Source of the DNA: Escherichia phage CBA6 | Reading direction: 5' to 3' (one strand) | Sequence record: KM389302.1 | Length of the DNA: 25,398 nucleotides | In this document: in pieces, positions 20 to 21,088 of the stretch | Layout: each line of letters opens with the position of its first letter | Numbering within the stretch: position 1 is the stretch's first letter | Notes under the pieces: generated by a model | What the model saw: the letters and a program-made list of their open reading frames with translations, nothing else | The model's database searches: none | What the model was told of the DNA's origin: nothing | Program-made: the position numbers and the translations under genes

Positions 20-2152
20 TCAGTTCCAGATGGAGTGTCTCCCCACGACTAAACCACCAAATGGGAATACTTGTTGTGACTCAGTCGAAGACATTCTATT
101 TCTCATGTCTTGGGAAATACTGGTAGAAGTCAGATCACTGAACCATTCTTGTTTAACTGCCCAAGAATATAATACCAACGGCATAACGCAGTCGTCGTGA
201 CATCCATCATCTGCTTCATAACGCGCACCACGGAACACGAATGTGCTGAGTTCATCTATCGTGTCTTGATCTTCAATCACCAACATTTCTTTCTCAATAA
301 GCGCTTTCAGGTTAGCACAACCAATAGATCGCACTTTCCTGTTGGTGTTAATGCCTGGCTCTGGTTTACGACCACCAATCCGTTTCCCTGTCCCTTTGTT
401 ATCCGTCGACGTGAATATGATCTCTGGATACTCAATTTCTTGATACAAGATCGTGATAACCTGACCACCAACGTCGTTATTCGTCTCGACAAGGACAGGG
501 CATTCCCCGTATTCAGTACACATATCAGCTATCGTGTATGCATACATCATCGGAGGTATTGTATTGTTCCTGTACTTGGCCGCTATGACATGCGGGTATT
601 CCGTTATATCTAGAATTGTCAGAACCGAATAATCTCCTTCAACACCTTTCCCCGTATCTGCGATCCCGAAGTAGATGCGTTGCGGGTCATATTCCTTGTA
701 AATTTTGGTGAACTCATTAGGCTCTCGATATAACTTGGATGTCATTTTATCCAAGCATTTGGCTGGTATCAATGAACCTACAGAACCACGGAACTTGATT
801 CCAAATTCCTGGTCAAAACGGGCATCCCCCAGACGAGCGCGTTGTTTGGTTTCCCAATCAGGGTCTTTGGTGTACGCCGGAACCTTGTACCAAGGGACTT
901 CGGTAAGATGGAAATCGTTGTATTGTGGATGGCGCGGGTCTGCTTTGGTGACGATATCATAGAACAACCCTCGCTGGCCTTTCGGAGTACTGGTCAGAAT
1001 ACAACGTGAAGTATCGGCAGATGCGATCGCTGGGAATGTTGACTCCCAAAATTCAAAGTCATTTTCGATGAACGCGACTTCGTCCACGTACAAGAGAGAT
1101 ACAGAACGACCACGAATAGAGTCCGAAGACGTTGCATAAGCATATATCTTAGAGCCGTTCTCAAATTCTATCAGTGTAGAACCAAACTTCTCACAACCCT
1201 GCTGAAGGAAGAATGGGAGGTCCTGATACGCTTTCCTGATACGATCAAGAATTTCAATCGCTTGTTTCTCTTTGTTTGCCAGTACCGCGATTTCTTTGTC
1301 TGAGTGGAACATCGCATACCAAAGAAGAAACGCAGCCACGACCGTGGTATTATGGCTGAGGAACCCATTCGTGTAATAACGTTGATCGCTGGACTTGACT
1401 TGCAAGTCATACATGTGGTGGTACTCACCAGTCTCCCAGATCTCAGAGATGAATTCTATTCCCTCCTGGGTCATTATGGCATCTCCGGCCTCCATGTCTT
1501 TAGCAAATACTTCGCGCCCATATTCATTGAAGAACATGTGCTCATCTGCGACATGAATTGTGCGTCCGGTTTCAGTCCTGACCACGTATTCAGCGTATTC
1601 TTTCGTTTTATGAGCGGCAATAACCGGAACCCAGCCAGTGTCGGACTCAACAAAATATCGTTTCCCGAAACGGCTGTCTACAAACTTATTGTGGTTGCCA
1701 ATGGTATTCAGTGGCACAGCATGGTTCGGTCCTTCGAAGCGCTTGTGAAGCTCTTCTATGGTGAGATGCAACTCTTGTTGACTGACTGTATCATAGACAT
1801 AAACAAGAGTATCACCACGGACGCATTTACCGGACTGACGCGCCTGGACAACGGCATTGAAACGATAATCTTGAAAATCGTGAAATAATTGTTTCTGATA
1901 ATCATGCATATCGAAAAGGATAAAGCCTTTATCGATTGTCGTTATCTTGTAGTAATTGGCAGCGAAGTAATGTGCGTCCATTGAACATTCAACAAATTCG
2001 TCTTCTTGTTCATCTGTTAGCATCAACTCGACTCGTGGAGCGCGCACAGAAGGCTTGCGCATGAACGTCTGGTCCATACGCAATTTCACGTCGTCGATTT
2101 TAAACCCCGTTTTTATCGGAGCATATTCTATATCACGCTTCTGATACGCCAT
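20..2152 (-). CDS. terL: Terminase large subunit (T4 gp17-like ATPase/nuclease), interrupted in frame by a mini-intein
   Basis: 710-aa ORF. Walker A reads QARQSGK-[intein]-TTVVAAF, Walker B-like LLYVDEVAF, and LTSTPKGQRGLFYDIV resembles the T4 gp17 TTTPNG region. Start overlaps the end of the upstream small-subunit gene. Confidence 0.9.
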   Translation of the reverse strand: MAYQKRDIEYAPIKTGFKIDDVKLRMDQTFMRKPSVRAPRVELMLTDEQEDEFVECSMDAHYFAANYYKITTIDKGFILFDMHDYQKQLFHDFQDYRFNAVVQARQSGKCVRGDTLVYVYDTVSQQELHLTIEELHKRFEGPNHAVPLNTIGNHNKFVDSRFGKRYFVESDTGWVPVIAAHKTKEYAEYVVRTETGRTIHVADEHMFFNEYGREVFAKDMEAGDAIMTQEGIEFISEIWETGEYHHMYDLQVKSSDQRYYTNGFLSHNTTVVAAFLLWYAMFHSDKEIAVLANKEKQAIEILDRIRKAYQDLPFFLQQGCEKFGSTLIEFENGSKIYAYATSSDSIRGRSVSLLYVDEVAFIENDFEFWESTFPAIASADTSRCILTSTPKGQRGLFYDIVTKADPRHPQYNDFHLTEVPWYKVPAYTKDPDWETKQRARLGDARFDQEFGIKFRGSVGSLIPAKCLDKMTSKLYREPNEFTKIYKEYDPQRIYFGIADTGKGVEGDYSVLTILDITEYPHVIAAKYRNNTIPPMMYAYTIADMCTEYGECPVLVETNNDVGGQVITILYQEIEYPEIIFTSTDNKGTGKRIGGRKPEPGINTNRKVRSIGCANLKALIEKEMLVIEDQDTIDELSTFVFRGARYEADDGCHDDCVMPLVLYSWAVKQEWFSDLTSTSISQDMRNRMSSTESQQVFPFGGLVVGRHSIWN
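1349..1825 (-). other. Mini-intein (159 aa, Hint domain only) inserted in the terminase P-loop
   Basis: Insert begins with Cys straight after GK (codon tgc at 1823-1825 on the minus strand) and ends with His-Asn followed by Thr (codons checked at 1346-1354). C-terminal YDLQVKSSDQRYYTNGFLSHN matches intein blocks F/G. Removing it restores GKT. Too short to hold a homing endonuclease domain. Confidence 0.8.
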
Positions 2153-5825: not shown

Positions 5826-8800
5826 TTATGCCAGAGCAATAAGACGGAAGTCTTTGAATGATGGAGGAGCAACGCGGTTCCCCCGTACAAGCGCTCGGAC
5901 TTTCAGGCCAACAAACGGGTTATTGCTCGCCACAGTCTTGTCGTATTCATATTCAAAGAATGTAGAACCGTCGTTGACCAGAGGCGACGTTGGAGTAACA
6001 TCTTCCCAAGCCACACTATCCATCTCCTGACCTGCTCTAAGAAGTTTCACCTGCACCTTCATAGAAGACTGAGATGGGAGCATTGCACCAAAGAACAACT
6101 TCACAGTCGAACATGGGTTATCAAATCCGATGTCTTTTGTAACATATTTGAAGACATCTTCAAATGGATCCACGCCGTATGAGTTGAAGATTACGCTCAG
6201 GTCATCGCCATCAATCATTGGAGCGGTGTACACGTTGTTTTCACTGCGCGTCATGGTGGCTCGGATCTGGAAATCCCCAACCTGACGATAGATCCCTTCA
6301 GTCGGCAACGCCACGTCAGTGTCAGTTTCAAATTCAGCCCAATCAGACATAGAATTGGAAGTAGCATCGCGATAGCGATATTCCAATTTCAGAATTGAAC
6401 CTTCCAGAGCTGAATTGGTGACACTGGCATAAAACATGTCAACCAGATAATTGCCCAAGAATGAAGCATTATCCCCGCCGATTTGCCCGTTGCTGTCTGC
6501 TGCTGAACCGACATCGATCTTGAATGAAGTATAGCTCGCATCTGTCACGGTAAATGTTTTGTTAAGTTGTTCAGGAGTAAATCCACAGCCACCTGTCAAT
6601 TCAGACAGAGTAACATTGTTCCCAGCAACCAAACCGTGACCAGGTGCAAACACGGTCACGACAGAAGACCCGCTCACACAGTTGAGAGTGTTCAATCCCA
6701 ACGGACGTTGTTTCGGTCCAAGTTTCGGATCAAATGTTACAACGTTCTGACCAGCAGCAAAGTTACAACGATAAACACGGAACTTCATATCTGCCATCTG
6801 GTTGGGAGACCATGTTGAACCGTTTGAAGAAGTGAAGAACACCCCTGTATACGGCTGCTTGGCGATATATTCGTTGGACAAAAGGTTTTTCTTGCCCATT
6901 TCCGCGATATATGCGTTGTAATCCTGAGTATTCGCCAACAAAACAATAGCAAACTCAGTCGATGCTTGCAAGTACACCGGATAATCGAAGGTGAACTTCG
7001 TTCCACCGGAAGAGTCTGTAGAGATCGTCACTTCAGACGGGTTCAAAGTTTTACGAGTTATGACGGTATGGGACGGTAATCCATTCTCCATCTCGCGAAT
7101 TTCCAGGGTGATCGGAACATCACGTGACTTGGTGGAGAAGAATACTTCCACGCCTTCGATATATTCACCACCGATCTTAGTTGCCACCATAAACGATTGG
7201 GCAATTGGATCACGCCATTGATCGACCACAACTTCAGAAGTGCTGGTTTCTGTGCTGGTGCTTGCGGTATAACCCAGAACACGAGTATTGACAAAGGTCT
7301 TTTGAATCCCTTGTTTCTTACCGAAAGACTTGTGAACAATTTCAGCATTAGTCAGCGTATCATCTGCAGATTTACTGTCAACAGGGCTATCCGTTAAGCG
7401 GAACACGTTGTCGCCTGTGTTGAATTTGATCGTATCATTCTGAGGAACGCGGAACACGCCTTTGACTGCGCCATTGGCATCAGTGGTGATTGGGTCACCA
7501 AAATTACCACCATTCGGCTTGCAATACAGATTCACATCACGACCTGAGAAGAATGCATACATGCGAGTGAAAGGTCGCAACCCAGAAGCGTCGAAAGAAA
7601 TATCAATTTCGCGCATGTATGGGATAACCTGCGTTTCCACAATCTGTTCGCCAGTCATGGTCGTGGTTGTTTTGTCCGTGTATGTGTATGTGGTGACATC
7701 ACGGGCAGAAACAGTCGTGCGATAGCGGTATCCCCACCACACACCACCAGCGCCATGCGGCTCCCAAACACGATCAGAAACAGAAACAGTACGCCACGTC
7801 CCGTACACCGAACCTTCTTGTACAGTACCACGAGTGTTGATCGTTTCATTGATAACACGCGGGGCGACATAGTAGTTTTCAAACCAGTAATCCGTGGTCG
7901 GGTTAATCTTCAAGAAACCTTCCCAGTTGAATACTGCATACGGGTTAACGTTGATCGTCGTCGTCGCGTATTCTTGGTTCACGGAGATTTCAGGCGTGTA
8001 GTTACAAACCACCATACCATCCATCACTTTGTTCCAGCCTACTGGAGTCATGTCAACGGCGTTCTGTTGAACAAACGGGCGCAAACGTCCATTTTCCGTA
8101 TCGATAGATCCCATCCAATCTTCAGACAGATCATCAATAAGACGGAAGTCTTTGAATGGATCGGCGGCGATACCGTTTTTGAATCGCGGATTACCCGTGA
8201 TTGGATCAAATACCTGTTGTGTCATCGCCGAAGATTCCAGCTGCGACAGAGAGGTGTAGTATTCAACGTTGGAAATACGCGTTTCCAGTTTACCGATATC
8301 ACGCATCGTATAACGACGGTTATCGATGGTGCGAATTTGTATATCATCGATATTCGGCGTGTATGGGGGAATCAACAGTTCATACAAACGCATGGAGTTT
8401 GCAGGTATTGCTGGGGACGCCAGGTTGTTGGAACTGATGCCACGGGCTACACCAAACACGCCATTATCTGCCAGATAAATCGCGTCGATACGAGGCAAAT
8501 AATACTCTGTGTCCAGGATGACAGCCGTATTCGGGCGAACCATATCAGTGTCGGATGTCCCGTTGGTAATTTTCGGACGGAAATCAAGGCTATCGGCCAA
8601 ACCATACACCGCCCCAGATGTAGAGGATGTATAATTCGGGATATCTTTGTAATCCATTGAAGTATACGAATCCGCTGAGAAGAAATCCCCCGAACTATGC
8701 GCGAAGTATTGATACACCACCGTATACGTCCCTGAAATGGCTCCAGCGGTGGATAACAGATTAGCCTTGTAATATCCCGCATCGCGTTGACCACCGTCGA

Positions 8801-10725: not shown

Positions 10726-10750
10726 AAATAAAAACCCCGCCGAAGCGGGG
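10726..10750 (-). terminator. Intrinsic terminator with a UUCG tetraloop, downstream of the 653-aa tailspike gene
   Basis: Minus-strand RNA folds as ccccgc-uucg-gcgggg followed by uuuuuauuu. Confidence 0.65.
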
Positions 10751-10757
10751 GATTTCA

Positions 10758-12719
10758 TCAACCGATTGTGAGATTAAATTCCATTTCTGTTACGACTGCA
10801 GATGGATTGTATAACGTAATTGTCCACGAAAAATCGTTAGTTTTCGAAATGACACAATATCTTCCTGTGCCTGGGGAACTAAAAGATGCCGCTAATTTAT
10901 TCATGCTTGTAAATGAATTTATCACCCAAACACCAGGAGATGTCTTCGTTACCGAACAATTAACTGCACTCGTCAGAGCACCAGAACCATTTACAATCAC
11001 TGATATTGGTTCGTCCAGAATTCTAACCACTCCGGAGTTTAATGAATATGAATTCATAACAGTTCCAATACGATTTCCCTGTAAATATGTGATGGCAGTA
11101 GAAGCCAGTCCCGTTCTATTCAACAATACATTTGTAACTCCCAAACCAGTACAACCCAATATTTGTGTGTCAGACACTAATCCAGACGTGGTGCTGGTTT
11201 GTTCACAAACCGCGTCCACAACATTACTACCGTTGTAACAATTGAAAGATACATTTATCAATTTATTTCGTCGTATTGATTTGCCTGCATTAGATTGTAT
11301 CTGTAATACACGGTTATATTGGCCAGGTGTATTAATCTGCACAAAACAATTTTGAATAACATTGTCATAACTATCAGTTAATGAAACGTTATGGTCAGAA
11401 ATACCGAAAGCAGATTTATAATCTCCATTATTGTTCATTTGAATAAAAACACCTTCAACGGTGTTATTGCTACAACCTTGTATTGCTATGACGTGGTCAT
11501 TCCCGTTAAATGCTCCTGCGGAAATAGAAACAAATTTACCACCAATGATTTTGCAGCCAGAACAACCTCTGGAAAATTTGATATTATTGTTGCCGCCAAC
11601 GACACCACCGACGTCGCCCAAATTAGCAGAACTCATTATTCCTTCACAATTTATGAATTGGAAATCTGTGGTTGGGAATCCAACACCATCTGCTGACGTC
11701 CCATGGAAATTAATCAATAACCCATTTTCCGCATAACCTTCAGATACATAGCCACCTTTACAACCCAGAACCTCCATATTCCCGCCAGCTTGAGAAACTC
11801 CAACGAATCTCGGATATGTGATTTCTGGGTACAATGCACCTATAATAACAAGGTTCCCGTGATTTGGTCCTTTAAAACCTGTATTTTCAAATACACATTT
11901 GTTAGACCTAACCCCAACACGCCGAGAATTATCAGTTGAACCATAAGATGTGTTCCCCAATCTTAATGGGGTTACTGTTGCTGTGGTTGTCGTGAAGACT
12001 ACACCCGAAACTTCAGTATAATTTCCTGTTAATTCGATAGCCCCTTTATTCGTGTCAAACGAATTCCCCAACAAATTGATTTTGTTTCCGTTGCCAATGA
12101 TGCGTTTACTGTCTAAATTGTTCACCACGTTGCTCGACAACCCAACATCTATATCTAAAATGATCGTATTATACACATTTAGAAGATCATTCAATATATT
12201 TGAAACGTCTTCGCCAGAAGAAACCCAATTAGATATGTATGTTTCTTTCTCGCCAATATTATTTTTTACAAAAATCCAAGCTGAACCAGAAATACCACCA
12301 GTATTTTCCAACTTTTGGGTAGAGGGAACAATTTTTGGAAGAGACCCACCCCAACGATAAAAACAATTATTATGGCGTATCATTTCATTCTTAGTACGGA
12401 TTGTAAACCCATCTGAAAACTCTTCCGTCATTTCGATAAATTCGCCGCGCAATACAGCCAGCGCACCCAAATCTACAGTGCCTCCGGAGTGCGTGAGGAT
12501 GCCGTCGACTAAACTAGTGACCGTTACAGCACCAATGTTAGAAGGAAGAGCATAGGCACGTTGGGTCACCTTATCGTAGATCACTTTATAACCAGACAAG
12601 GACTGCCCTGATTTCGCATAAACGACTTCCGACTTTTTACACCCAAATTTACGAGCAATACTGTCTTTGTTCGATTCTTTTGAAGTAGAACCTTTTGGTT
12701 GAGCAAATTGCGGATTCAT
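10758..12719 (-). CDS. Tailspike protein, putative polysaccharide depolymerase (653 aa)
   Basis: N-terminal module (ARKFGCKKSEVVYA...YKVIYDKVTQRAY...YRWGGSLPK) is shared with the other tailspikes. The rest is N/G/S/T-rich with short repeats typical of a parallel beta-helix. AGGAG Shine-Dalgarno. Confidence 0.7.
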   Translation of the reverse strand: MNPQFAQPKGSTSKESNKDSIARKFGCKKSEVVYAKSGQSLSGYKVIYDKVTQRAYALPSNIGAVTVTSLVDGILTHSGGTVDLGALAVLRGEFIEMTEEFSDGFTIRTKNEMIRHNNCFYRWGGSLPKIVPSTQKLENTGGISGSAWIFVKNNIGEKETYISNWVSSGEDVSNILNDLLNVYNTIILDIDVGLSSNVVNNLDSKRIIGNGNKINLLGNSFDTNKGAIELTGNYTEVSGVVFTTTTATVTPLRLGNTSYGSTDNSRRVGVRSNKCVFENTGFKGPNHGNLVIIGALYPEITYPRFVGVSQAGGNMEVLGCKGGYVSEGYAENGLLINFHGTSADGVGFPTTDFQFINCEGIMSSANLGDVGGVVGGNNNIKFSRGCSGCKIIGGKFVSISAGAFNGNDHVIAIQGCSNNTVEGVFIQMNNNGDYKSAFGISDHNVSLTDSYDNVIQNCFVQINTPGQYNRVLQIQSNAGKSIRRNKLINVSFNCYNGSNVVDAVCEQTSTTSGLVSDTQILGCTGLGVTNVLLNRTGLASTAITYLQGNRIGTVMNSYSLNSGVVRILDEPISVIVNGSGALTSAVNCSVTKTSPGVWVINSFTSMNKLAASFSSPGTGRYCVISKTNDFSWTITLYNPSAVVTEMEFNLTIG

Positions 12720-12750
12720 AATAAGAATCTCCTGTTTTTCTCTAGTAAAT

Positions 12751-12767
12751 ACCCTCCGAAGAGGGGT
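12751..12767 (-). terminator. Hairpin with a UUCG tetraloop between the 926-aa and 653-aa genes; possible attenuator or weak terminator
   Basis: Minus-strand RNA folds as accccuc-uucg-gagggu, followed by only a weak U tract. Confidence 0.35.
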
Positions 12768-12773
12768 ATATTT

Positions 12774-15554
12774 TTAAATAGAAGAATCCAATATACGGTA
12801 ACTAATTAACTTATTAGGGTCTACAGGATTAATCAGGTTGTAGTACCGTGAAGCTACATAATCATTCTCAGAAGAGAACATACCAACATACACTTTAGCA
12901 CCTACACCAGAACAGGCATCCCCACCAGCATTGCTATCCGAGAAGAATGTTAATGAAGAAGTTAATCCGAATATAGAATTAAATGGTACAGCTAAATAAG
13001 CGCCTCGGAATGACCGTCTGATTCTCTTACCCGTCTGAATATTAAGAATACTCCACCAGAAATATCCAGGTTTAGCACCAATAGCTATATGATATGGCAC
13101 ACCACTTTGTAGTTTAAGGTCGTTAGGTAAATCCCCAGATAAAATTTGGGTTGTACCATCGCCCCCCAATAGCAAAGCAATTGTTTGTTTTCCGGAAGCG
13201 TCTATAACTAATTGAAGATGAAGACTGTTGGATGTATCACTAAACCCTGAACCAATGGCCATGAAGTTAAATACTTCAGCTCCAGATATGGTAGGTACTA
13301 CAACAGCAGCCATGGTAATACCTTCTGGACCTGCTGTTCTTGAGTACAGTAATTTATCTTTGTTGGCTTGTGATAGTCTCAGACCATTTACTTGCCCTAC
13401 AGAAGATGGGACACTTACATAAACAGGTGTAGTGCTAACACCATCAAATGTAGGGGTCTCGTTCATGGTTTGCAAACCAGTCTTGGAATAATTAACCAAT
13501 CCGTTAATGCTCAGGTCGGAATTTGTGGGGTTGATAATATTGTTATCACCAATAAAGTTAATGCCCATATAACCAGTCTCAACCACACCATTAATGGTGA
13601 CGCTGCAATCATTAGACAGGAACTGAAAATTGCCCGCACTAGAGTTAGCACCTGAACCACTATTCGCGGCATAATTGAGTCCTACGAATCCGTTGATAAC
13701 TGCATCACTTTTGTTAAATACGATGTTGTAGAAAGTGTTGTTAGCGTTGATGCCGTTACGATTGGTGTTCAATCCGTTCATGGAAATTGAATATGAATCG
13801 CTAATCTCAATGCCATTCCCGCCACAATCTTGTACCTCAATACCATTAATAACCATATTCTGGCTATTATTAATAGTAATGCCTGGGAACTGTCCTACTG
13901 TACCATAAGGTTGCCAGTTAGCCCAAATGAATTTACCACCAATAATACGACCATTACCACAACCATCAAGAACCAGACATTGTTTACCGCAGGTATTAAC
14001 CTGGATATTTGTCCAAGTCCAATCAGTAGTAGCACAACGGACGCCCACCTGATTGATGTGGTTGACTAAAAGAGAATCTGTAGTAACACTAAAGTTACCA
14101 CTATCAATATTTAACCCATATTCATCAAAACCTGCTATATGGACCTTAGAAATACACAAGTCGCGTCTTGGGTCTGCGGTAGTGTGGAACGGATAATCAG
14201 CTGAGAGACCTGAAGGAGTTTCTATATAGATACCTGTTGTACCCGCAGTAAATGATGTGCCTTGTTGTGCACCTGTGCCATATACCCCAAAGGAGTCTAA
14301 TACAATAAGGGAGCATGTATCTTTTATGGTAATACAATTCCCAGTAGCAGAAGGCAACTGATGCAACCTGGAGTAATGTAATCCAGACCCATAAATAGAC
14401 GACGTATTATATTTTAACCGGATATTGCTAACGTAATGTACACCAGTTAATTGTGTGGCCTTACCACTGTCCACACAAGATTGTACTGGAATAGTATCAT
14501 CATTAGAACCGCCCAAAGCACCAAACATGAATGGGTTAACTCTATCAGCATTAACACGTAACCAGGCTGCGCCTCCAACAGTTTTGATCACAGTGCCGTT
14601 ATCATCAGTCTTTCCTGTACCATCAATTAACGCACGGAATACCCCTCCACCAAGAAGAGTACCCGCAGTGTGTTGCTTAAGAATAATGCGTTGTCCATCC
14701 ATAGTGGGTTCAGTATTCCTGAGATCAGCAACAGAATGGCATTCTCCGATATACTTGGCACCATCATTGCGCCCCAGAGTGTTTATCACATTAATAAATG
14801 AATCTTCTAAAGGCAACAAATCCACTACAACATTACCTGGATTATAAGTAAGTTGCCCATTACTAACAGAAGAAATCACTGAACCATCAGGGATAGTTGG
14901 TAAACCATAAATAATCTGCGCCGCTGAATCATAAACAACTTTCTTGTCGTCGAGTAAAGATATGGTATCAGTGCTGACAATGACTTCAGAGTCTTTTACG
15001 TTAGCCGAACGGGCAATTTCTTGGATACTGCGATCGAACGCCGGACTGATGTTCGGTTGTTTAACAGACATCTCCGCAACAACCCACACCCCTGCAGTCA
15101 GCGCAGTTTGTAAGGAAACTTTCCCAGTCGTACTGTTGTATGAATATTCTATATCAGGAGTTTTGTACTCACCACCGATATAAAGAGACTGGACACCATA
15201 AGAAGTAAAGTCAGGCGTGAATTCAGTTTCTCCACCCACGGCTTGAAATTTGTATATTCGAATACCTTTAGAAGTATCTTCTGGTGAAAGAATTTTATCG
15301 AATAAGCAATACACAACATCGCCTTTGGACAATGCGCGCCCGAGATTCAACGTATTCCCGTCTATCTCGAAGTTGTCTAACGGAACTTGCATGCCGCCGT
15401 TAATTGTGATAACACCAGTGACAGGATAGAAAGGTAGAGAAAAGAAAGTTTCTCCACCGACACTTGATTTATAAGTGAAAGGAATCTGGTGGGGAGCTGT
15501 GACTACGCCGCCGAATAATTCTTCTACATTTCTGGTCATTTGAAAATACCCCAT
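12774..15554 (-). CDS. Tailspike protein with a T7 gp17-like N-terminal anchor domain and beta-helix body (926 aa)
   Basis: N-terminus IPFTYKSSVGGETFFSLPFYPVTGVITINGGMQVPLDNFEIDGNTLNLG fits the pattern of podovirus tail-fibre N-terminal anchors. Central region has tandem NG-rich beta-helix coils. The start may instead be the second ATG at 15539 (MTRNVEE...). Confidence 0.7.
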   Translation of the reverse strand: MGYFQMTRNVEELFGGVVTAPHQIPFTYKSSVGGETFFSLPFYPVTGVITINGGMQVPLDNFEIDGNTLNLGRALSKGDVVYCLFDKILSPEDTSKGIRIYKFQAVGGETEFTPDFTSYGVQSLYIGGEYKTPDIEYSYNSTTGKVSLQTALTAGVWVVAEMSVKQPNISPAFDRSIQEIARSANVKDSEVIVSTDTISLLDDKKVVYDSAAQIIYGLPTIPDGSVISSVSNGQLTYNPGNVVVDLLPLEDSFINVINTLGRNDGAKYIGECHSVADLRNTEPTMDGQRIILKQHTAGTLLGGGVFRALIDGTGKTDDNGTVIKTVGGAAWLRVNADRVNPFMFGALGGSNDDTIPVQSCVDSGKATQLTGVHYVSNIRLKYNTSSIYGSGLHYSRLHQLPSATGNCITIKDTCSLIVLDSFGVYGTGAQQGTSFTAGTTGIYIETPSGLSADYPFHTTADPRRDLCISKVHIAGFDEYGLNIDSGNFSVTTDSLLVNHINQVGVRCATTDWTWTNIQVNTCGKQCLVLDGCGNGRIIGGKFIWANWQPYGTVGQFPGITINNSQNMVINGIEVQDCGGNGIEISDSYSISMNGLNTNRNGINANNTFYNIVFNKSDAVINGFVGLNYAANSGSGANSSAGNFQFLSNDCSVTINGVVETGYMGINFIGDNNIINPTNSDLSINGLVNYSKTGLQTMNETPTFDGVSTTPVYVSVPSSVGQVNGLRLSQANKDKLLYSRTAGPEGITMAAVVVPTISGAEVFNFMAIGSGFSDTSNSLHLQLVIDASGKQTIALLLGGDGTTQILSGDLPNDLKLQSGVPYHIAIGAKPGYFWWSILNIQTGKRIRRSFRGAYLAVPFNSIFGLTSSLTFFSDSNAGGDACSGVGAKVYVGMFSSENDYVASRYYNLINPVDPNKLISYRILDSSI

Positions 15555-15640
15555 AAAGGATTTGCCAATATGGGGTATTTAGTCTGAACTAATAAAATTT
15601 TATGAACAAAGGTATGATAAAAACCCCGCCGAAGCGGGGT
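15548..15640. repeat. About 90-bp intergenic cassette, copy A
   Basis: Near-identical to 17678-17770. Contains a palindrome (aaatacccca / tggggtattt), the CTAAATA motif, and the UUCG-loop terminator. Confidence 0.8.
15576..15582 (-). promoter_or_regulatory. Candidate late promoter element CTAAATA upstream of the 926-aa tailspike gene
   Basis: Minus strand reads cagaCTAAATAcccc, 21-36 nt upstream of the candidate ATGs. Confidence 0.4.
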
Positions 15641-15647
15641 TTTTATC
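15616..15647 (-). terminator. Intrinsic terminator with a UUCG tetraloop, downstream of the 675-aa tailspike gene
   Basis: Minus-strand RNA folds as ccccgc-uucg-gcgggg followed by uuuuauc. Confidence 0.65.
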
Positions 15648-17673
15648 AATCGGCCGTTTTGATTGGTGAATACAGCCCGCCTCCGCGATGAATCCATGCA
15701 TAAACGTTATCTGTAGTTGGGGTTATCGCCGAACTCCGATAGAACATAAAACCAACAGGAGCACCGCTATAGTTAGGCATGGCATTATGTTTGCCTTTCG
15801 CTTTGTCCCACCCGCAAAACGTTGGCATTGGCGTTGCATGATATGCTGACGCATACACGCCGCCTATAGCAATCGACTTACCAGAATTTGTAGTAATCAT
15901 AATACGAGATGCTTTTGTTCTATCAACAGGTGCTGAAATTTTGTATAATCTCCAGCCATTTCCCATGTCGTAGAACTTAGTAGGATCACCGTAAATAGAA
16001 CCCTGTCCATCTGCCGATTGAATGTAAATGGAGTTAGGCTCACCACGCACAAACAGGGCGGCTCGAACGAAACCTGTAGCTGAACGAAGGCAGTTGATAG
16101 CAAAGTATACTTGTTCCGATACGCTTTCGTACCCTACATATCTACCGCATCCTGAAGGCTCATTTGCATCGGTTCCAAAAACCAAACCAGAATTAAGCCC
16201 ATTGAAGTCTACAGGATATCCGTTATTGTTAATAACACTCCAGTCACCACTTTGGCAAAGGTTTGAACCGCTCATGGATATAAAGTCACCACCCTGCATT
16301 CCAGCAGTATGGTCACTGAACATCGCGTGGTTCATATAGTGCATTGAACTTGCCATCATGCCGAATTGGCAACGATAACCGACAATGGACCACGGACCGC
16401 GGATTTTACCGTTTCCGTTTACTTCGCCATATAGACCAATGACGGTGTTATGCTGCGCAGGTACAGACACGTTGTCTAGAACATACCCCGCCGAACCACT
16501 AGCGTCCAGACCGACGAATGTGTTCGCATTACCTTCAGTATTACCACCTTCTGGAACCCATGTATGAGAACCTTTAATAAGAACTGAACCCACACATTGG
16601 GTGTATACGTTTTGATTACAAGACCCGGAAGATATATCAATAATAATTTGCCCGCCACCGGATGTGGTTCCAGCACGAATACGCGTGAAGTTATTCCAGT
16701 AACTACCACCGCGCCAAGGAATTAAGCCTGTAGGCGTAGTTTCTATACCGCCTTTTAACGTGAAGTTTGCCGAGCAATCTATGTTAGATATGTTATGAAA
16801 TTGTGCACCTTGAACTAACATATTACGACAGCTAATACCCTGTATGTCCAAAGAACGCGCATGAAGTATTAAAAAATCCGCATCAGGGATAATACCAAGA
16901 CACTCCACATTACAACGAACAATAAATTGTGCGTAATAAGCGTGATAGCCGGACAAATTGGCTATTGAAGTTTTGTAAATTCCTTTTGGTATGAATAACT
17001 TTCTTCGGTTTTTACCATACTCAACGAGAGCATTATAATCACTGTTAATCGCATCCAGAGCGGCACAAATAGCTGCTGTGTCATCCGTGACCCCATCCCC
17101 TACGGCACCCCATCCTCGAATGTCACCTTCATCACGCCAGCGAGCCATCTGCAATTCTGGGTAAAGAGTGGCTCCACTTGGATTAGTAATCTGGCTTCTT
17201 AATGACGCATCACCAACACTAACCCATGCACCTAAATCAACGCCGCCTGAGTTATCGGGTGTAGAACCAGCGGCAACTACCTTTGGCAAAGAACCATCCC
17301 ATCGATATTTTTCATCATCGTGAACAAGAAGTTCATTTTTCACATTAATGGTATGGCCGAAATTAAAAGAACCAGGTAAAGTCACATATTCTTCGCGGCT
17401 TACTGCTAATTCCCCAAGGTCTACAGAACCAGCGGAATGAGTGAGGATAGCTCTTTCATCCAGACTAATTGCAGTTGTCCCTGAAACAATACCGGAAGGG
17501 AGAGAATAAGCCCGTTGGGTAGACTCATCATAAATTACTTTAAATCCACTGAGATCAATACCGACAGTGAAATAAACGACTTCGTCTTCTTTGACACCGA
17601 AATTTCGAGCGATAGATTGTTTGTTAACTTCTATGGAAGTAGAGCCGCGTGGTTGATTGAATTGAGAAATCAT
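15646..17673 (-). CDS. Tailspike protein, putative depolymerase of the pectate-lyase-like beta-helix type (675 aa)
   Basis: Shared N-terminal attachment module (ARNFGVKEDEVVYF...FKVIYDESTQRAY...YRWDGSLPK). GWGAVGDGVTDDTAAICAAL matches the hallmark N-terminal motif of pectate-lyase-superfamily beta-helix enzymes. Confidence 0.75.
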   Translation of the reverse strand: MISQFNQPRGSTSIEVNKQSIARNFGVKEDEVVYFTVGIDLSGFKVIYDESTQRAYSLPSGIVSGTTAISLDERAILTHSAGSVDLGELAVSREEYVTLPGSFNFGHTINVKNELLVHDDEKYRWDGSLPKVVAAGSTPDNSGGVDLGAWVSVGDASLRSQITNPSGATLYPELQMARWRDEGDIRGWGAVGDGVTDDTAAICAALDAINSDYNALVEYGKNRRKLFIPKGIYKTSIANLSGYHAYYAQFIVRCNVECLGIIPDADFLILHARSLDIQGISCRNMLVQGAQFHNISNIDCSANFTLKGGIETTPTGLIPWRGGSYWNNFTRIRAGTTSGGGQIIIDISSGSCNQNVYTQCVGSVLIKGSHTWVPEGGNTEGNANTFVGLDASGSAGYVLDNVSVPAQHNTVIGLYGEVNGNGKIRGPWSIVGYRCQFGMMASSMHYMNHAMFSDHTAGMQGGDFISMSGSNLCQSGDWSVINNNGYPVDFNGLNSGLVFGTDANEPSGCGRYVGYESVSEQVYFAINCLRSATGFVRAALFVRGEPNSIYIQSADGQGSIYGDPTKFYDMGNGWRLYKISAPVDRTKASRIMITTNSGKSIAIGGVYASAYHATPMPTFCGWDKAKGKHNAMPNYSGAPVGFMFYRSSAITPTTDNVYAWIHRGGGLYSPIKTAD

Positions 17674-17706
17674 GATAATGCCCCATAAAGGATGACCAAT
17701 ATGGGG

Positions 17707-17713
17707 TATTTAG
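17707..17713 (-). promoter_or_regulatory. Candidate late promoter element CTAAATA upstream of the 675-aa tailspike gene
   Basis: Minus strand reads cagaCTAAATAcccc, 33 nt upstream of the ATG at 17673. Confidence 0.4.
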
Positions 17714-17745
17714 TCTGAACTAATAAAATTTATGAACAAAGGTAT

Positions 17746-17770
17746 GATAAAAACCCCGCCGAAGCGGGGT
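17746..17770 (-). terminator. UUCG-tetraloop hairpin, third copy of the conserved terminator
   Basis: Same ccccgc-cgaa-gcgggg sequence as at 10735-10750 and 15624-15639. Confidence 0.55.
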
Positions 17771-17776
17771 TAATGA

Positions 17777-17929
17777 GAAGCGCATGAACAAGAATATCGC
17801 GCAGAAAAGTCAGGTAAGCGCATAAAGGAACTCGAAGCGGAGAACGCCAGACTACGGCAGCAACTGGACGCGGCGAACGCGCAACTGTATTTTATTCTGG
17901 AGAATCTTAAGACGCAGCAGGTGGATTAA
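17777..17929 (+). other. Start-less 51-codon open frame encoding a coiled-coil-like peptide; possible gene remnant or acquired fragment
   Basis: Frame reads EAHEQEYRAEKSGKRIKELEAENARLRQQLDAANAQLYFILENLKTQQVD and ends at TAA 17927-17929. There is no in-frame ATG/GTG/TTG after the upstream TGA. The segment looks GC-richer than flanking phage DNA and is followed by a strong terminator. Confidence 0.3.
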
Positions 17930-17933
17930 GGAA

Positions 17934-17964
17934 AAGGCCCCGTAAGGGGCCTTAGTTTTATTTT
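17934..17964. terminator. Strong bidirectional intrinsic terminator
   Basis: aaggcccc-gtaa-ggggcctt followed by agttttatttt on the plus strand. It also lies just downstream of the minus-strand core tailspike stop at 17958. Confidence 0.7.
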
Positions 17965-20900
17965 GTACTAACGAAATCAAATTCGTGAAGAGCCATTGAA
18001 CCTGATGATATTCTTGCATCTAGTAAGGTGCCATCAATGGAAATTAACTTTTTATTCGCAATTGTTCCTATAAGAACACCATTACTAAAAAACTGAACTA
18101 TACCAGGTCCTTTACCGTTGTATTTAGCGGTTAAAGCGCCCTTCATTGGAGCTGAAGGTAAAGCAATGACGGTCTCTACTCCAGCAACGGATATAACACC
18201 ACGTATATCACTCCCTGTATTAAATCTGAATCCGAAATAGTTTCCTGATTCGAAACTTCCGGAATGTAATAGTCCTCCTGGTATGTTTTGCATGCTCCAT
18301 GCGATACTAAAGGCGCGGTAGTTGTTTGTCTCAAACTCATACGTTAATCGATGTTTTCTTGTTACACGATACCGACAAGTTCCACCAGAACTTGCTGCTT
18401 GCATATATAACCCATCATCCTCGAAATAAGTAAATGTGTCCGCAGGCTGAACTGTTGTTTTAGTGAATTTATCATGGTCCTGGAAAAGTGTATGGTAATG
18501 CGTTATGTCGTGGCGAGCGAATGCGTTCACACCCATGATTGTTTTAGATGCTTGTTCTATAATAAAACCAGCCATAACGCCATCAGAATACATTTGCGCT
18601 TTTTGACCAATAACAGGATGAAAATCATTCGCGATAATAGCCCCACCAATCGGCAGCGCGACATATTCGGTTAGCACCCCAGATGCTGGTGGTAGATTAT
18701 CAAGTTGGGTGCTGTTATAGTTAATAATACCGCCGTGTTTTGTTACTAATCCTGCCTTATTTATCGCGTTTCCAAATTGCGGCGATTCAACGCTTATTGT
18801 ACTGTTGTAAGCCTCAATGCATTTATCGACGCCTACGCCGTTGAATGATGGTTGAAATACGCCACCGCTGGTGCAGCCATAAAATTCAATGGATGCGTTT
18901 TCGTCAGAATGCGTGCGCCCCTTGAAGTTAATCTGTTCAATAGATGGTGAATATGGGGTTCCGCCACAGTTGAACAGTTGAATAGAGTTAAGGCTAACTT
19001 TGCTTGGGTCTGCTGACCTGCTCCCAATTTTTATTCCGGCTTGCTGGCTTGAACTAGGAGGGAACAATGGCGTACACCCACGCTTACTGCGAACAACGAC
19101 ATCCTCAGGAGTACCGGTGTTGCCGTAATTATCTGCAATACTAATTACAATTCGCTGCCAGTAATTGTTTGGAATGGCATCAACGGCATCTTGTACAGTG
19201 GGGTAATCTTCCGGAACCATGAGTGTTACAGGCATCGTGTAAATACCTGGCACTGTTGACGAGTTAACACCAAATGGGTGAATGTAACCACGATACGGAT
19301 CATTACCTCCGATAGTATTGATAAACCCTTCGATGCGCACTTTTGATGTATCAGTGTACAGATATCCACACTCGCCAATATCTACGCGGAACTTCGCAGG
19401 GATAGTCAGATCTTCTGTAAATTTCACTGGAACATTGACAAAAACACGACCATTACCAGAAGCTATGGCGCGTTTGAAAGCCTGCGTGTAGTCTGGTGCC
19501 GCTGGGTCTCCTGGCTCAACAAATGCGCGAAGGTCATAAAGTCTTTCCTGCTGACCGCCAGGGATTAAAAAACCTTTATCTCCTGTTAATTCAGTTCTTA
19601 ATGATGCATCACCAACGCTAACCCATGCACCTAAACCAACGCCGCCAGTTGTTGTCGGAGTTGAGCCAGGAGCCACAGTTTTAGGAAGTGTCCCATCCCA
19701 ACGATACTTACCGTTCGTATGGGTGAGTAATTCATTTTTAACATTGATAACAGCACCAGAATCAAATGTCCCAGACAAGGTAACATATTCTTCACGAGAT
19801 ACAGCTAATGCGCCCAGATCAACACTACCAGCAGAATGCACAAGTACAGCCGAAGAACTAAGGCTGACTGCCGTGGTTCCAGTCGGTAGCTCTGGAATAA
19901 AATATGATCTCTGTGTTACTTTATCATAGATAACTTTATACCCGCTTAACACCGCACCAACACTAAAATAAACAACCTCTGTATCTTTAACATTGGTTAC
20001 ACGAGCCACTTCCCGCAAAGTATAATCAATTTGATTATAGATGTTTGGCGTTCCATTGATAATTACAACAACTTCATCCTCTGCATCCAGTTCTTGCGCA
20101 AGAGTGATTTTACTGGTTAATGGATCAAATGTGAACCCCAGATTTTTATACTGGCGACTTCCGTTTATATCAATGGCCGGAACATCATCGACAACGATGT
20201 CTAACGTGATTTCGGTTTCACCACCAATCGCAGAACCCCCATTATAGACCCAGGTAATCGTAGAAGAACTAGAACCACCGCCATTACCCAATTGAATAGG
20301 AGTATATTCAATCACCTGAAGTTCTGTGCTGGCTGGCAAAGAAGGACTGAAAGTGATCACATTCCCATCTAGTGAATATTTGGATTCCGCAAGACGTTTT
20401 CCGTCAGCATACACGTCCACGATTGTTGGTGGCGTATTGAGAGTGACAGCGCTTGTTTCAGACGCCAAAATTTGTGTAAAAATCTCACGACTGTAGACAC
20501 GGCCTTGGCCAAGGCCGACGCCGGATGTGACAACCCAACCTTGTTCAGGCCCAGACCAAGTGAAAGTCGCCGACACGTTATCGGTGGATATCGTCATATC
20601 TTCGGTGGAGCCGTAAAGGTTATTTCCCGCTGGAGATACAGTCAATGGGTAAGTGGCGAATTTTCCATAAGCATCACAAATAGTAACGGAATCCCCAACA
20701 CGTGTAGGGGGAGGGAGAACCACTGTAGATGCCCCTGTGGTGTTATTAATGAGATAGCCGCGACCTTCTAACAAATTGCTAGAGGGAGCGTGAGGGAGCG
20801 TTTCCCAGCGTATTCCACCGCCCCCCCAAAGACAACCAACCACCGTTTTCGTAATAACCTTCAAATTCATCGCTATCAGGATTGTAACGTACAGAAGATG

Positions 20901-21051
20901 GAAGACCTGCAACTTCAGTATCTTCAGGGAATGTCATTACGGCACCAGGGGAATGCTCAATAGTGCCGGAGTTGTTGAAGCCTTTTATGTTCGAAGACTC
21001 AGAAGTTTCTAAACCCAAAGGGAAAAGAGGCTGTGTTGGTTTGTTAGCCAT
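17958..21051 (-). CDS. Core tailspike with a T4 gp10-like N-terminal baseplate-attachment domain; reading frame broken at a G7 homopolymer (about 1030 aa if fused)
   Basis: The 90-aa ORF (20779-21051) has a native-looking N-terminus (...VRYNPDSDEFEGYYENGGWLSLGG). After a one-base frame change at the tract it continues into the 984-aa ORF (GGIRWETLP...GRGYLINNTTGASTVVLPP...). The nominal N-terminus of the 984-aa ORF has no ribosome-binding site. Downstream are T7 gp17-like modules, a complete copy of the shared tailspike attachment module, and a beta-helix body. Confidence 0.65.
20821..20827. repeat. G7 (plus-strand C7) homopolymer tract at the frame junction of the core tailspike gene
   Basis: Minus strand reads TTG GGG GGG CGG. 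Deleting one G gives the in-frame fusion ...GGWLSLGGGGIRWETLP... Confidence 0.9.
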
Positions 21052-21088
21052 TTGTAATACCCCTAAATGTATTCATGTCATCTAGGGG

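Follow-up and report, generated by a model that had tools for sequence, protein, structure and literature searches.

Two adjacent tailspike genes of Escherichia phage CBA6 share a 51-nt tract that most probably acts as a conserved exchange junction for receptor-binding domains (RBDs), with the exchanged cassette bounded by this tract and by a terminator hairpin. The tract is the joint at which the virion-attachment module meets the module for binding and cleavage of host polysaccharide. Numerous lytic enterobacterial phages that are not related to one another conserve this joint as DNA, down to the synonymous sites, in their tailspike and tail-fibre genes. The feature is already known from phage biology rather than new, since a published motif marks the joint between attachment and receptor-binding modules in many lytic phages. 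Current understanding is unchanged by these findings, and much of the identity between the two copies stems from this cross-genus, already published junction motif.

Tailspike cluster and position of the tract

The window analyzed here (25,398 nt of record KM389302.1) holds a cluster of four tailspike genes from a Kuttervirus (Ackermannviridae), in the CBA120 layout. Its closest DNA matches are the Kutterviruses Guerrero, UTK0005, STML-13-1 and CBA120, with gene order orf210–213. The cluster was judged by CBA120 and Guerrero gene order and annotation, by PDB matches, and by the Pfam families Tail_spike_N, Baseplate_wedge and Gp6-like. Four tandem tailspike genes extend from a VriC-like gene to the baseplate wedge genes, with XD domains in TSP4 and TD1–TD2 in TSP1, TSP3 and TSP4. 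Gene order and anchor domains are the same as in the CBA120-type TSP1–4 branched complex. The 675-aa gene is tsp3 and the gene annotated as a 984-aa open reading frame (ORF) is tsp4. Both are orthologues of phage CBA120 genes, with PDB matches to CBA120 TSP3 (6NW9) and TSP4 (7REJ and 5W6H).

Coordinates are those of the plus strand; the tract copies, the equivalent tsp1 site, the anchors, the cassettes and the terminator hairpins after tsp3 and tsp4 lie on the minus strand. The tsp3 anchor (TD1 and most of TD2) occupies 17248–17673 and matches PDB 6NW9/5W6F over aa 1–166. It is 91–96% identical to the tsp3 anchors of eight Kutterviruses and 87% identical to that of Agtrevirus AV101. Its neck and receptor-binding cassette follow at 15646–17196, and homology to the CBA120 TSP3 structure 6NW9 stops at about aa 160–166. 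The tsp4 anchor, comprising the baseplate-attachment region, XD domains, TD1 and TD2 (PDB 7REJ and 5W6H), spans 19647–21052 and is likewise 91–96% identical to tsp4 of other Kutterviruses. One extra G at 20821–20827 breaks the reading frame of this anchor; the real tsp4 start is therefore near 21052, not 20912. The tsp4 receptor-binding cassette lies at 17958–19595.

The near-identical tract of about 50 nt reported in the initial annotation is present in both genes, with 47/50 matching nucleotides (3 mismatches), although its positions had been misplaced by about 6–13 nt. The 50-mers lie at 17198–17247 and 19597–19646. In codon register the tract comprises 51 nt with 48/51 matches: 17197–17247 in tsp3 (codons 143–159, GGVDLGAWVSVGDASLR) and 19596–19646 in tsp4 (codons 423–439 of the ORF, GGVGLGAWVSVGDASLR). 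Its core sequence is TGGGTTAGTGTTGGTGATGC, and the canonical tsp3-type tract reads TGGTTGAGTGTTGGTGACGC... The encoded peptide, GGV(D/G)LGAWVSVGDASLR, forms the end of Tail_spike_N (TD2) and the first neck residues, directly before the RBD. Pfam Tail_spike_N matches stop inside the tract in both proteins, at aa 155 in tsp3 and aa 435 in tsp4. The equivalent site in the tsp1-like gene (12249–12299, GGISGSAWIFVKNNIGE) is degenerate, matching the two copies at 19/51 and 18/51 nt. No copy at 31/51 or above was found in tsp2 of this genome or of eight Kutterviruses. A by-eye comparison with the Chi site of E. coli, GCTGGTGG, led to rejection of the tract as a Chi candidate: its GTTGGTGA has 2 mismatches in 8 positions.

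Codon alignment of the shared module (477 nt; tsp3 aa 8–167 against tsp4 aa 289–447) gave only 60% DNA identity and 62% protein identity, and the tract is its best 50-nt window. Under a uniform 60% model the probability of at least 47/50 matches is 5e-8 per window, or about 2e-5 after correction for all windows. Identity in the tract exceeds the module average (47/50 against 60%), so the initial annotation withstands comparison with the rest of the module. Its figure of about 80% protein identity over YRWDG...GDASLR also agrees with the 30/37 residues counted in the alignments. Where both proteins have the same residue and its codon is degenerate, the two genes use the same codon at 13 of 15 positions within the tract and at 27 of 80 outside it (Fisher p = 2.8e-4).

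Fit of the tract to a published junction motif, and breakpoints

Searches of phage records with a 71-nt query around the tract returned 401 matches, and 63-nt queries returned 411–413. Carriers include Kayfunavirus (K1F, LI10P1), Justusliebigvirus (PHB05), Skatevirus, Agtrevirus AV101, the ~72-kb phage ST4, phages Bas78/79/82 and Kagunavirus-like phages. Many third positions open to synonymous change are near-invariant across the 32 tract copies compared, which come from 17 phages. Serine is encoded by AGT in 31/32 of these copies across genera, yet AGT accounts for 15% of serine codons in this genome. The rare codons AGA, TTA and TCA are common to the tsp3 and tsp4 copies.

Pas et al. (2023, Virol J 20:174, PMC10408124) described 'motif one' (44 nt), 'motif two' (95 nt) and 'motif three', and proposed motif one as an RBD-swapping hotspot. 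The tract fits motif one by position, length and taxon distribution rather than base by base, the published motif existing as images. Like motif one, it lies at the 3' end of the anchor coding sequence, immediately 5' of the RBD. It is also more conserved than the surrounding anchor sequence, occurs in Kuttervirus tailspike genes, all but TSP2, and is accompanied by a conserved downstream terminator ('motif three'). The genera reported for motif one are Kayfuna-, Kaguna-, Justusliebig-, Nouzilly-, Gamaleya- and Kuttervirus (PMC10408124). This spread is mostly reproduced for the tract: copies from Kayfunavirus, Justusliebigvirus, Skatevirus, Agtrevirus, ST4 and Bas78/82 were aligned, and Nouzillyvirus and Gamaleyavirus are not among the carriers named. 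In the present genome the two copies are 94% alike, in contrast to a mean identity of 63 ± 9% for the motif-one set (PMC10408124).

All similarity breakpoints in tsp3 and tsp4 coincide with the tract or the hairpins, and on the far side the relatives are foreign. Similarity of tsp3 stops at 17197/17198 in 9/9 Ackermannviridae comparators and that of tsp4 at 19588–19606 in 8/8. The 3' similarity boundaries sit on hairpins, at 15639–15648 for tsp3 and 17768–17772 for tsp4. The tsp1-like gene breaks at about 12448–12454, upstream of its tract position, so the tract is not the sole junction in use.

The RBDs of tsp3 and tsp4 each have different foreign relatives. Positions 17072–17319 of tsp3, which include the first ~125 nt of the cassette (17072–17196) and the tract, are 75–79% identical to Kayfunavirus gp17, K1F included. 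No DNA relatives of either RBD were found in the phage collection beyond the neck regions, and a protein scan of IMG/VR with the tsp3 RBD gave neck-level matches only. The corresponding scan with the tsp4 RBD returned one P22-like relative. Positions 19149–19584 of tsp4 show 89% DNA identity to a P22-like tailspike gene with a Head_binding anchor (IMG/VR locus L025), and also match an E. coli prophage tailspike gene (NZ_CP178642). The P22-like homology ends at 19584, which is 12 nt beyond the tract on its 3' side; the codons that directly follow ...SLR align there with ...DQLRQEL of the P22-like protein. A T7-like contig (L026) carries the tract and, downstream of its tail fibre gene, an exact match to the 29-nt stretch 15622–15650; the two flank its own RBD.

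Most likely the tract, which codes for the final strand of TD2/Tail_spike_N and the start of the neck, serves as a short homology patch. An in-frame crossover there would exchange all the sequence 3' of it, and the conserved terminator hairpin that follows the gene (motif three of the published set) would be the site, or close to the site, of a second crossover. The RBD would then be an exchangeable cassette. We infer that recombination initiates in the tract, although breakpoints at its 3' edge are also expected from illegitimate crossovers followed by selection for in-frame, anchor-preserving products. The breakpoints mapped here, like published experiments (PMC11414711, PMC9965104), are in line with the suggestion in the initial annotation that the tract offers homology for further rearrangement. 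Recombination between tsp4 and tsp5 has been observed (PMC11414711), and functional chimeras were joined after Ala157 of CBA120 TSP3 (PMC9965104). This residue aligns inside the tract (numbering from the PDB-match alignment), and the junction has already been used by engineers for chimeric Ackermannviridae tailspikes. The tract is the natural site for cutting and pasting tailspike specificity, and the present cluster a clean natural example in which the RBDs of two adjacent genes were each replaced from a different source.

RBD swapping among TSP1, TSP3 and TSP4 was reported by Sørensen et al. (2021, PMC8432352), and the present arrangement resembles their idea that conserved 5' sequence allows exchange of receptor-binding modules among these genes. 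The TD1-end recombination site 'GTTAVSL' of that study is represented here by GTTAISL/GTTAVSL in tsp3 and tsp4. In contrast to that site, the tract marks the TD2/neck boundary, ~80 codons nearer the 3' end; it is the breakpoint of tsp3 and tsp4, whereas tsp1 breaks further upstream.

The modularity of P22, Det7 and HK620 tailspikes (head-binding domain plus exchangeable beta-helix) is also comparable, the relative of the tsp4 RBD being carried on a P22 Head_binding anchor. Unlike tsp3 and tsp4, the P22-like genes are without the tract, and the motif is absent from Lederberg- and Uetakeviruses (Pas et al., PMC10408124).

The proteins, fold and phage group of this cluster differ from those of T-even tail fibres, which share with it short conserved motifs flanking a hypervariable adhesin segment, proposed to swap host specificity. 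Distal tail fibre genes of T-even phages reportedly recombine at such conserved motifs, in work attributed to Tétart et al. in 1998 (cited in PMC11414711 and PMC10408124).

Origin of the identity between the two copies

The 48/51 identity probably records a recent exchange with a tsp4-type tract, either through conversion between the paralogues or through imports from donors with similar variants. Gene conversion, as proposed in the initial annotation, is a fair reading of the excess identity, yet it is inseparable from two RBD imports carrying similar variants. A recent tsp4/tsp3 conversion (ectopic exchange) in this lineage would have homogenized the tract alone, atop general motif conservation; we regard this as plausible, at somewhat less than an even chance. 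Inside the tract each paralogue resembles the other more than it resembles its orthologues, and the flanks follow the orthologues at 91–96%. The tsp3 copy matches nine tsp3 orthologues at 40–44/51 and the tsp4 copy matches eight tsp4 orthologues at 35–44/51. Paralogue pairs within nine other genomes reach just 35–42/51, and 48/51 is the highest value among 400 non-orthologous pairs (mean 38.7, sd 3.0). Among 50,697 phage records, the best whole-tract match to either copy was 87–92%. The tsp3 gene follows its orthologues to ~10 nt before the tract and then takes on a tsp4-type variant, its tract copy matching the tsp4 tract of Guerrero and STML-13-1 without a difference over 41 nt. Phage EP75 carries a tsp4-like patch in tsp3 just upstream of its tract, and paralogue exchange therefore does happen in this region.

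Several observations weigh against conversion. The 3' 30 nt of the tract (TGGGTTAGTGTTGGTGATGCATCATTAAGA) occur exactly in the unrelated T7-like contig, and the 5' 41 nt are found in tsp4 of other phages. Both copies could therefore have come from a circulating pool at RBD import. Conversion would also require a patch ending exactly where homology ends, donor/recipient polarity cannot be established, and the base-by-base comparison took in only 17 genomes. A broader version, in which Kutterviruses keep both the anchor-end motif and the terminator hairpin homogenized among tsp genes by frequent intragenomic conversion, seems to us a long shot. If true, each RBD would lie between two standardized 'docking' sequences. 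The cluster would then be a cassette array, with RBD shuffling, deletion and capture at high frequency within one co-infection.

Purifying selection on a structurally critical peptide combined with codon bias, the DNA sequence itself having no role, is an unlikely explanation. The peptide is near-invariant (GAW[VLI]SVGD) and sits at a domain boundary, and GGT, GTT and GAT among the tract codons are preferred codons of this genome. However, the window's own codon usage predicts 4.2 identical synonymous codons of 15, against the 13 observed. Residues of equal conservation in the rest of the module have the same codon in just the 27/80 given above, and rare codons are retained (AGT in nearly every copy; AGA, TTA and TCA in both). 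We infer that the synonymous sites stay alike through repeated exchange, not through selection on the DNA itself.

Conservation of synonymous sites across genera would also suit a function of the tract as a nucleic acid, for example as an RNA structure, as a regulatory site within the gene or as a sequence recognized by a site-specific enzyme. This is very improbable: neither copy gave an Rfam match even at E <= 1, predicted folding was no better than that of shuffled sequence (z = -0.56 and -0.12), and the ORF and Pfam surveys showed no recombinase or nuclease gene with the cluster.

Recent intragenomic duplication was the other origin proposed in the initial annotation. As a duplication of the whole attachment module, with the tract as its best-preserved remnant, it can be practically dismissed: both genes share the TD1–TD2 architecture in the same order, but the modules are ~60% identical outside the tract, where a third of synonymous codons match, and each copy is far closer to its own orthologue in the eight Kutterviruses, the tsp3 anchor also to that of AV101. 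With modules ~60% identical to each other and each 91–96% identical to its own orthologue, tsp3 and tsp4 are, judged by sequence, old paralogues. Their split predates the genus, because the anchors follow their orthologues, the AV101 tsp3 anchor included.

Terminator hairpins and repeats

The two tract copies are direct repeats with a spacing of 2,399 bp and a common codon phase. They could recombine with each other, with loss of the tsp4 RBD and the tsp3 anchor, and the product would join the tsp4 anchor in frame to the tsp3 RBD. Such a possible repeat-mediated deletion bears on the genetic stability of these phages in production.

A family of hairpins occurs at four sites in the window (10728–10755, 12744–12771, 15617–15644 and 17747–17774). 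The conserved terminator hairpin downstream of tsp3 (15617–15644, AAAAACCCCGCCGAAGCGGGG) forms the 3' boundary of its swapped cassette, and that downstream of tsp4 (17747–17774) the 3' boundary of the swapped tsp4 cassette. Weak Rfam matches, under gathering thresholds, were to the terminator hairpin only. The intergenic repeats 15541–15644 and 17673–17774 were considered as a second sign of homogenization and rejected as not unusually similar: they are 94% identical here, and the same pair in eight other Kutterviruses is 74–92% identical (Guerrero 91%).

Motif three is described as ~20 nt of conserved noncoding sequence, starting 0–19 nt after the stop codon and predicted to be a terminator (PMC10408124). 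The tsp3 hairpin fits this description. In contrast, the tsp4 hairpin starts 184 nt past the stop codon because an extra, probably imported segment intervenes. This segment (183 nt, 17775–17957) separates the stop codon of tsp4 from the conserved terminator, has a hairpin of its own (GGCCCCTTACGGGGCC) and holds a plus-strand fragment of a small convergent gene. Positions 17816–17960 are homologous to a small convergent gene adjoining the tailspike gene of Kagunavirus-like siphoviruses, and the fragment therefore probably came along with the imported tsp4 cassette.

A shared tailspike tract and its distribution

The closest relatives of the tailspike region are Kutterviruses (Ackermannviridae) such as Guerrero, UTK0005, STML-13-1 and CBA120. 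Its genes, all on the minus strand, follow the order of CBA120 orf210-213 (TSP1 to TSP4) and are flanked by a VriC-like gene and baseplate wedge genes. The 675-aa protein is TSP3, with residues 1-166 aligning to the CBA120 TSP3 structure 6NW9, and the '984-aa' ORF is TSP4, matching XD-domain structure 7REJ and TSP4 structure 5W6H.

The initial annotation described a near-identical tract of ~50 nt in these two genes. A 50-mer was located exactly at 17198-17247 and 19597-19646, with 47/50 identity and three differences (+ strand). Read in the coding direction and in register with the codons, the tract spans 51 nt (17197-17247 and 19596-19646), matches at 48/51 positions and encodes GGV(D/G)LGAWVSVGDASLR. 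The surrounding shared module (477 nt by codon-anchored alignment; aa 8-167 of the 675-aa protein and aa 289-447 of the 984-aa ORF) shows just 60% DNA identity and 62% protein identity. Comparison of the tract with the rest of this module confirmed the former as its best 50-nt window. If identity were a uniform 60%, a 47/50 window would arise somewhere in the module with a probability of ~2e-5. Identical degenerate residues shared the same codon at 13/15 positions inside the tract versus 27/80 outside (Fisher p = 2.8e-4), where the window's own codon usage predicts 4.2/15 inside. The tract is therefore real, beyond chance, protein conservation alone or codon bias.

The Pfam domain Tail_spike_N covers aa 90-155 of TSP3 and aa 370-435 of TSP4, limits by which the tract encodes the domain's last 13 residues (TD2 in CBA120 nomenclature) plus four neck residues. 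The receptor-binding domain (RBD) follows directly in both genes.

Searching with 71 nt spanning the tsp3 copy retrieved 401 phage records, and 63-nt queries spanning either copy retrieved 411-413. Matches beyond Kutterviruses included Kayfunaviruses (T7-like, including K1F gp17), Justusliebigvirus PHB05, Skatevirus and other ~45-kb Salmonella and E. coli siphoviruses, the ~72-kb phage ST4, Agtrevirus AV101, and Providencia and Klebsiella phages. Among 32 tract copies from 17 phages set side by side, many synonymous third positions were near-invariant. The tract Ser codon was AGT in 31 copies, a codon used for only 15% of serines in the window. A purely protein-level explanation fails on these synonymous codons (13/15 versus 27/80; AGT in 31/32). 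Neither copy matched an Rfam family, even at E <= 1, or folded better than shuffled sequence (z = -0.56 and -0.12).

Pas et al. (2023) reported a 44-nt DNA motif, motif one, kept in receptor-binding protein (RBP) genes of Kaguna-, Kayfuna-, Justusliebig-, Nouzilly-, Gamaleya- and Kutterviruses, the last comprising 'all Kuttervirus RBPs except CBA120 RBP2'. Motif two is a 95-nt extension in some genes and motif three a 20-nt terminator 3' of the gene; the authors proposed that each of the three serves as a hotspot of recombination (PMC10408124). The tract fits motif one, likened by distribution and gene position rather than base by base with the logo. The tsp2 gene lacks a tract copy, as published for CBA120 RBP2. 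A hairpin family (AAAAACCCCGCCGAAGCGGGG) 3' of each of the four tsp genes resembles motif three, and the extended homology of the tsp3 copy to Kayfunavirus gp17 recalls motif two. On these likenesses, the tract appears to be an already known junction motif of a well-studied tailspike system.

Mosaic boundaries and foreign RBD relatives

Breakpoints were mapped by comparison with eight Kutterviruses and an Agtrevirus. In tsp3, high similarity stops at 17197 or 17198 (9/9 comparisons), and in tsp4 at 19588-19606 (8/8). It returns at terminator hairpins, at 15639-15648 on the tsp3 side and 17768-17772 on the tsp4 side. The segments between these boundaries have foreign relatives, different for each gene. 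Positions 17072-17319 of tsp3 share 75-79% identity with gp17 genes of Kayfunaviruses; for the remaining tsp3 RBD, the searched collections gave no relative at the DNA level. The tsp4 segment 19149-19584 shares 89% DNA identity with a tailspike gene with a P22 Head_binding anchor (IMG/VR L025), and this homology stops 12 nt 3' of the tract. The segment also matches a tailspike gene from an E. coli prophage.

The conserved hairpin is separated from the tsp4 stop codon by a further 183 nt (17775-17957), missing in other Kutterviruses. They hold a separate terminator hairpin (GGCCCCTTACGGGGCC) and, on the + strand, part of an ORF (...KRIKELEAENARLRQQLDAANAQLYFILENL...). This fragment has homology to a convergent gene of 45 aa that adjoins the tailspike gene in Bas75 and other Kagunavirus-like siphoviruses. 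The segment looks like a donor hitchhiker.

Both borders also occur in an unrelated T7-like IMG/VR contig, 2534682223_000005 (L026). Its tail fiber gene carries the tract at 6362-6412, matching the window tsp4 copy at 45/51 positions (85% over 117 nt), and 29 nt directly after the tail fiber stop codon (7857-7885) match the window tsp3 terminator exactly. Tract and terminator thus flank this contig's own RBD.

Breakpoints and foreign relatives form the pattern expected if RBDs were exchanged as cassettes by paired crossovers, in the tract and at or near the terminator hairpin. We infer that crossover initiates in the tract. Functional TSP3 chimeras joined after Ala157 of CBA120 TSP3 (PMC9965104), which aligns inside the tract (numbering from the TSP3 structure alignment), and the directly observed replacement of an RBD by tsp-gene recombination in phage S117 (PMC11414711) fit this picture. 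The suggestion that the tract offers homology for rearrangement agrees with both the breakpoints and the literature. One modest new point is that the window offers a clear natural case of neighboring genes that have both had their RBD replaced, with motif and terminator as the bounds.

Origin of the excess identity

The two tract copies are unusually homogeneous in the CBA6 genome, the other modest new point. Corresponding tsp3/tsp4 pairs in nine other Ackermannviridae genomes match at 35-42/51, versus 48/51 here. The window tsp3 tract matches nine tsp3 orthologues at 40-44/51, and the tsp4 tract matches eight tsp4 orthologues at 35-44/51. The pair is the maximum of 400 non-orthologous tract pairs (mean 38.7, sd 3.0), and no phage record matched either copy at full length above 87-92%. 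This excess goes beyond general motif conservation.

Window tsp3 tracks its orthologues up to ~10 nt ahead of the tract. Within the tract it lacks the usual tsp3 variant (TGG TTG AGT GTT GGT GAC GC...); 41 nt are instead identical to the tsp4 tract that Guerrero and STML-13-1 carry, and the final nine nt are common to the window's own tsp4. This switch is a paralogue-exchange signature. In EP75, tsp3 carries ~40 nt of tsp4 type just upstream of the tract before returning to tsp3 type (alignment columns 263-300), indicating that paralogue exchange occurs in this region of another Kuttervirus.

Gene conversion between tsp3 and tsp4, raised in the initial annotation, would add to RBD cassette movement and not replace it. 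It draws support from the 48/51 identity (35-44/51 to orthologues), the tsp4-type variant in tsp3 and the EP75 patch. However, L026 contains the tract's 3' 30 nt exactly, other phages contain its 5' 41 nt, and we regard conversion as possible, if somewhat doubtful. Those same matches are compatible with import from a shared pool, which would also account for the excess: each cassette may have brought a similar tract variant with it. Recent duplication of the module, the other origin put forward, is excluded by the ~60% identity outside the tract, where only a third of synonymous codons are shared, and by the 91-96% identity of each module to its own Kuttervirus orthologue.

Other features of the region

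The tsp4 frame is broken at 20821-20827 (poly-C on the + strand, poly-G in the gene), with seven G versus six in CBA120 and Guerrero. A CBA120-like N-terminus (MANKPTQPLF...) is intact upstream in another frame, starting near 21052, and the '984-aa' ORF from TTG 20912 is thus an artefact of the shift. A homopolymer sequencing error could account for the extra G; the other possibility is a real frameshift, which would affect the protein anchoring the whole spike complex.

Along its entire length, the tsp2 gene (12774-15554) shares 94-97% identity with its counterparts in CBA120, Guerrero, EP75 and S117. Since CBA120 TSP2 is the spike specific for E. coli O157 (PMC9965104), this phage probably recognizes O157 too. 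For the RBDs of tsp1, tsp3 and tsp4, the phage collection contained no close relative at the DNA level.

The tsp1-like gene (10758-12719) shares only its first ~90 codons with tsp1 of four Kutterviruses (STML-13-1, PM10, Mutine and dinky). Similarity breaks at 12448-12454 (~12450), upstream of the tract position, indicating that tsp1 used another junction, possibly related to the TD1-end site that Sørensen et al. 2021 proposed (PMC8432352). The tract equivalent (12249-12299) is degenerate (19/51).

An intergenic repeat of ~100 nt is present both upstream of tsp2 (15541-15644) and upstream of tsp3 (17673-17774), the copies being 94% identical. It comprises a terminator hairpin, a spacer, a ribosome-binding region and the first codons. 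The same pair occurs in other Kutterviruses at 74-92% and is therefore not special to the CBA6 genome.

The large terminase gene (20-2152) contains an apparent 159-aa mini-intein (aa 110-268; 1349-1825, minus strand) right after ...ARQSGK (...SGK|CVRGD...FLSHN|TTVV). Its Pfam Intein_splicing match is below threshold (27 bits, E = 4e-6), and the Terminase_6N match resumes only at aa 269.
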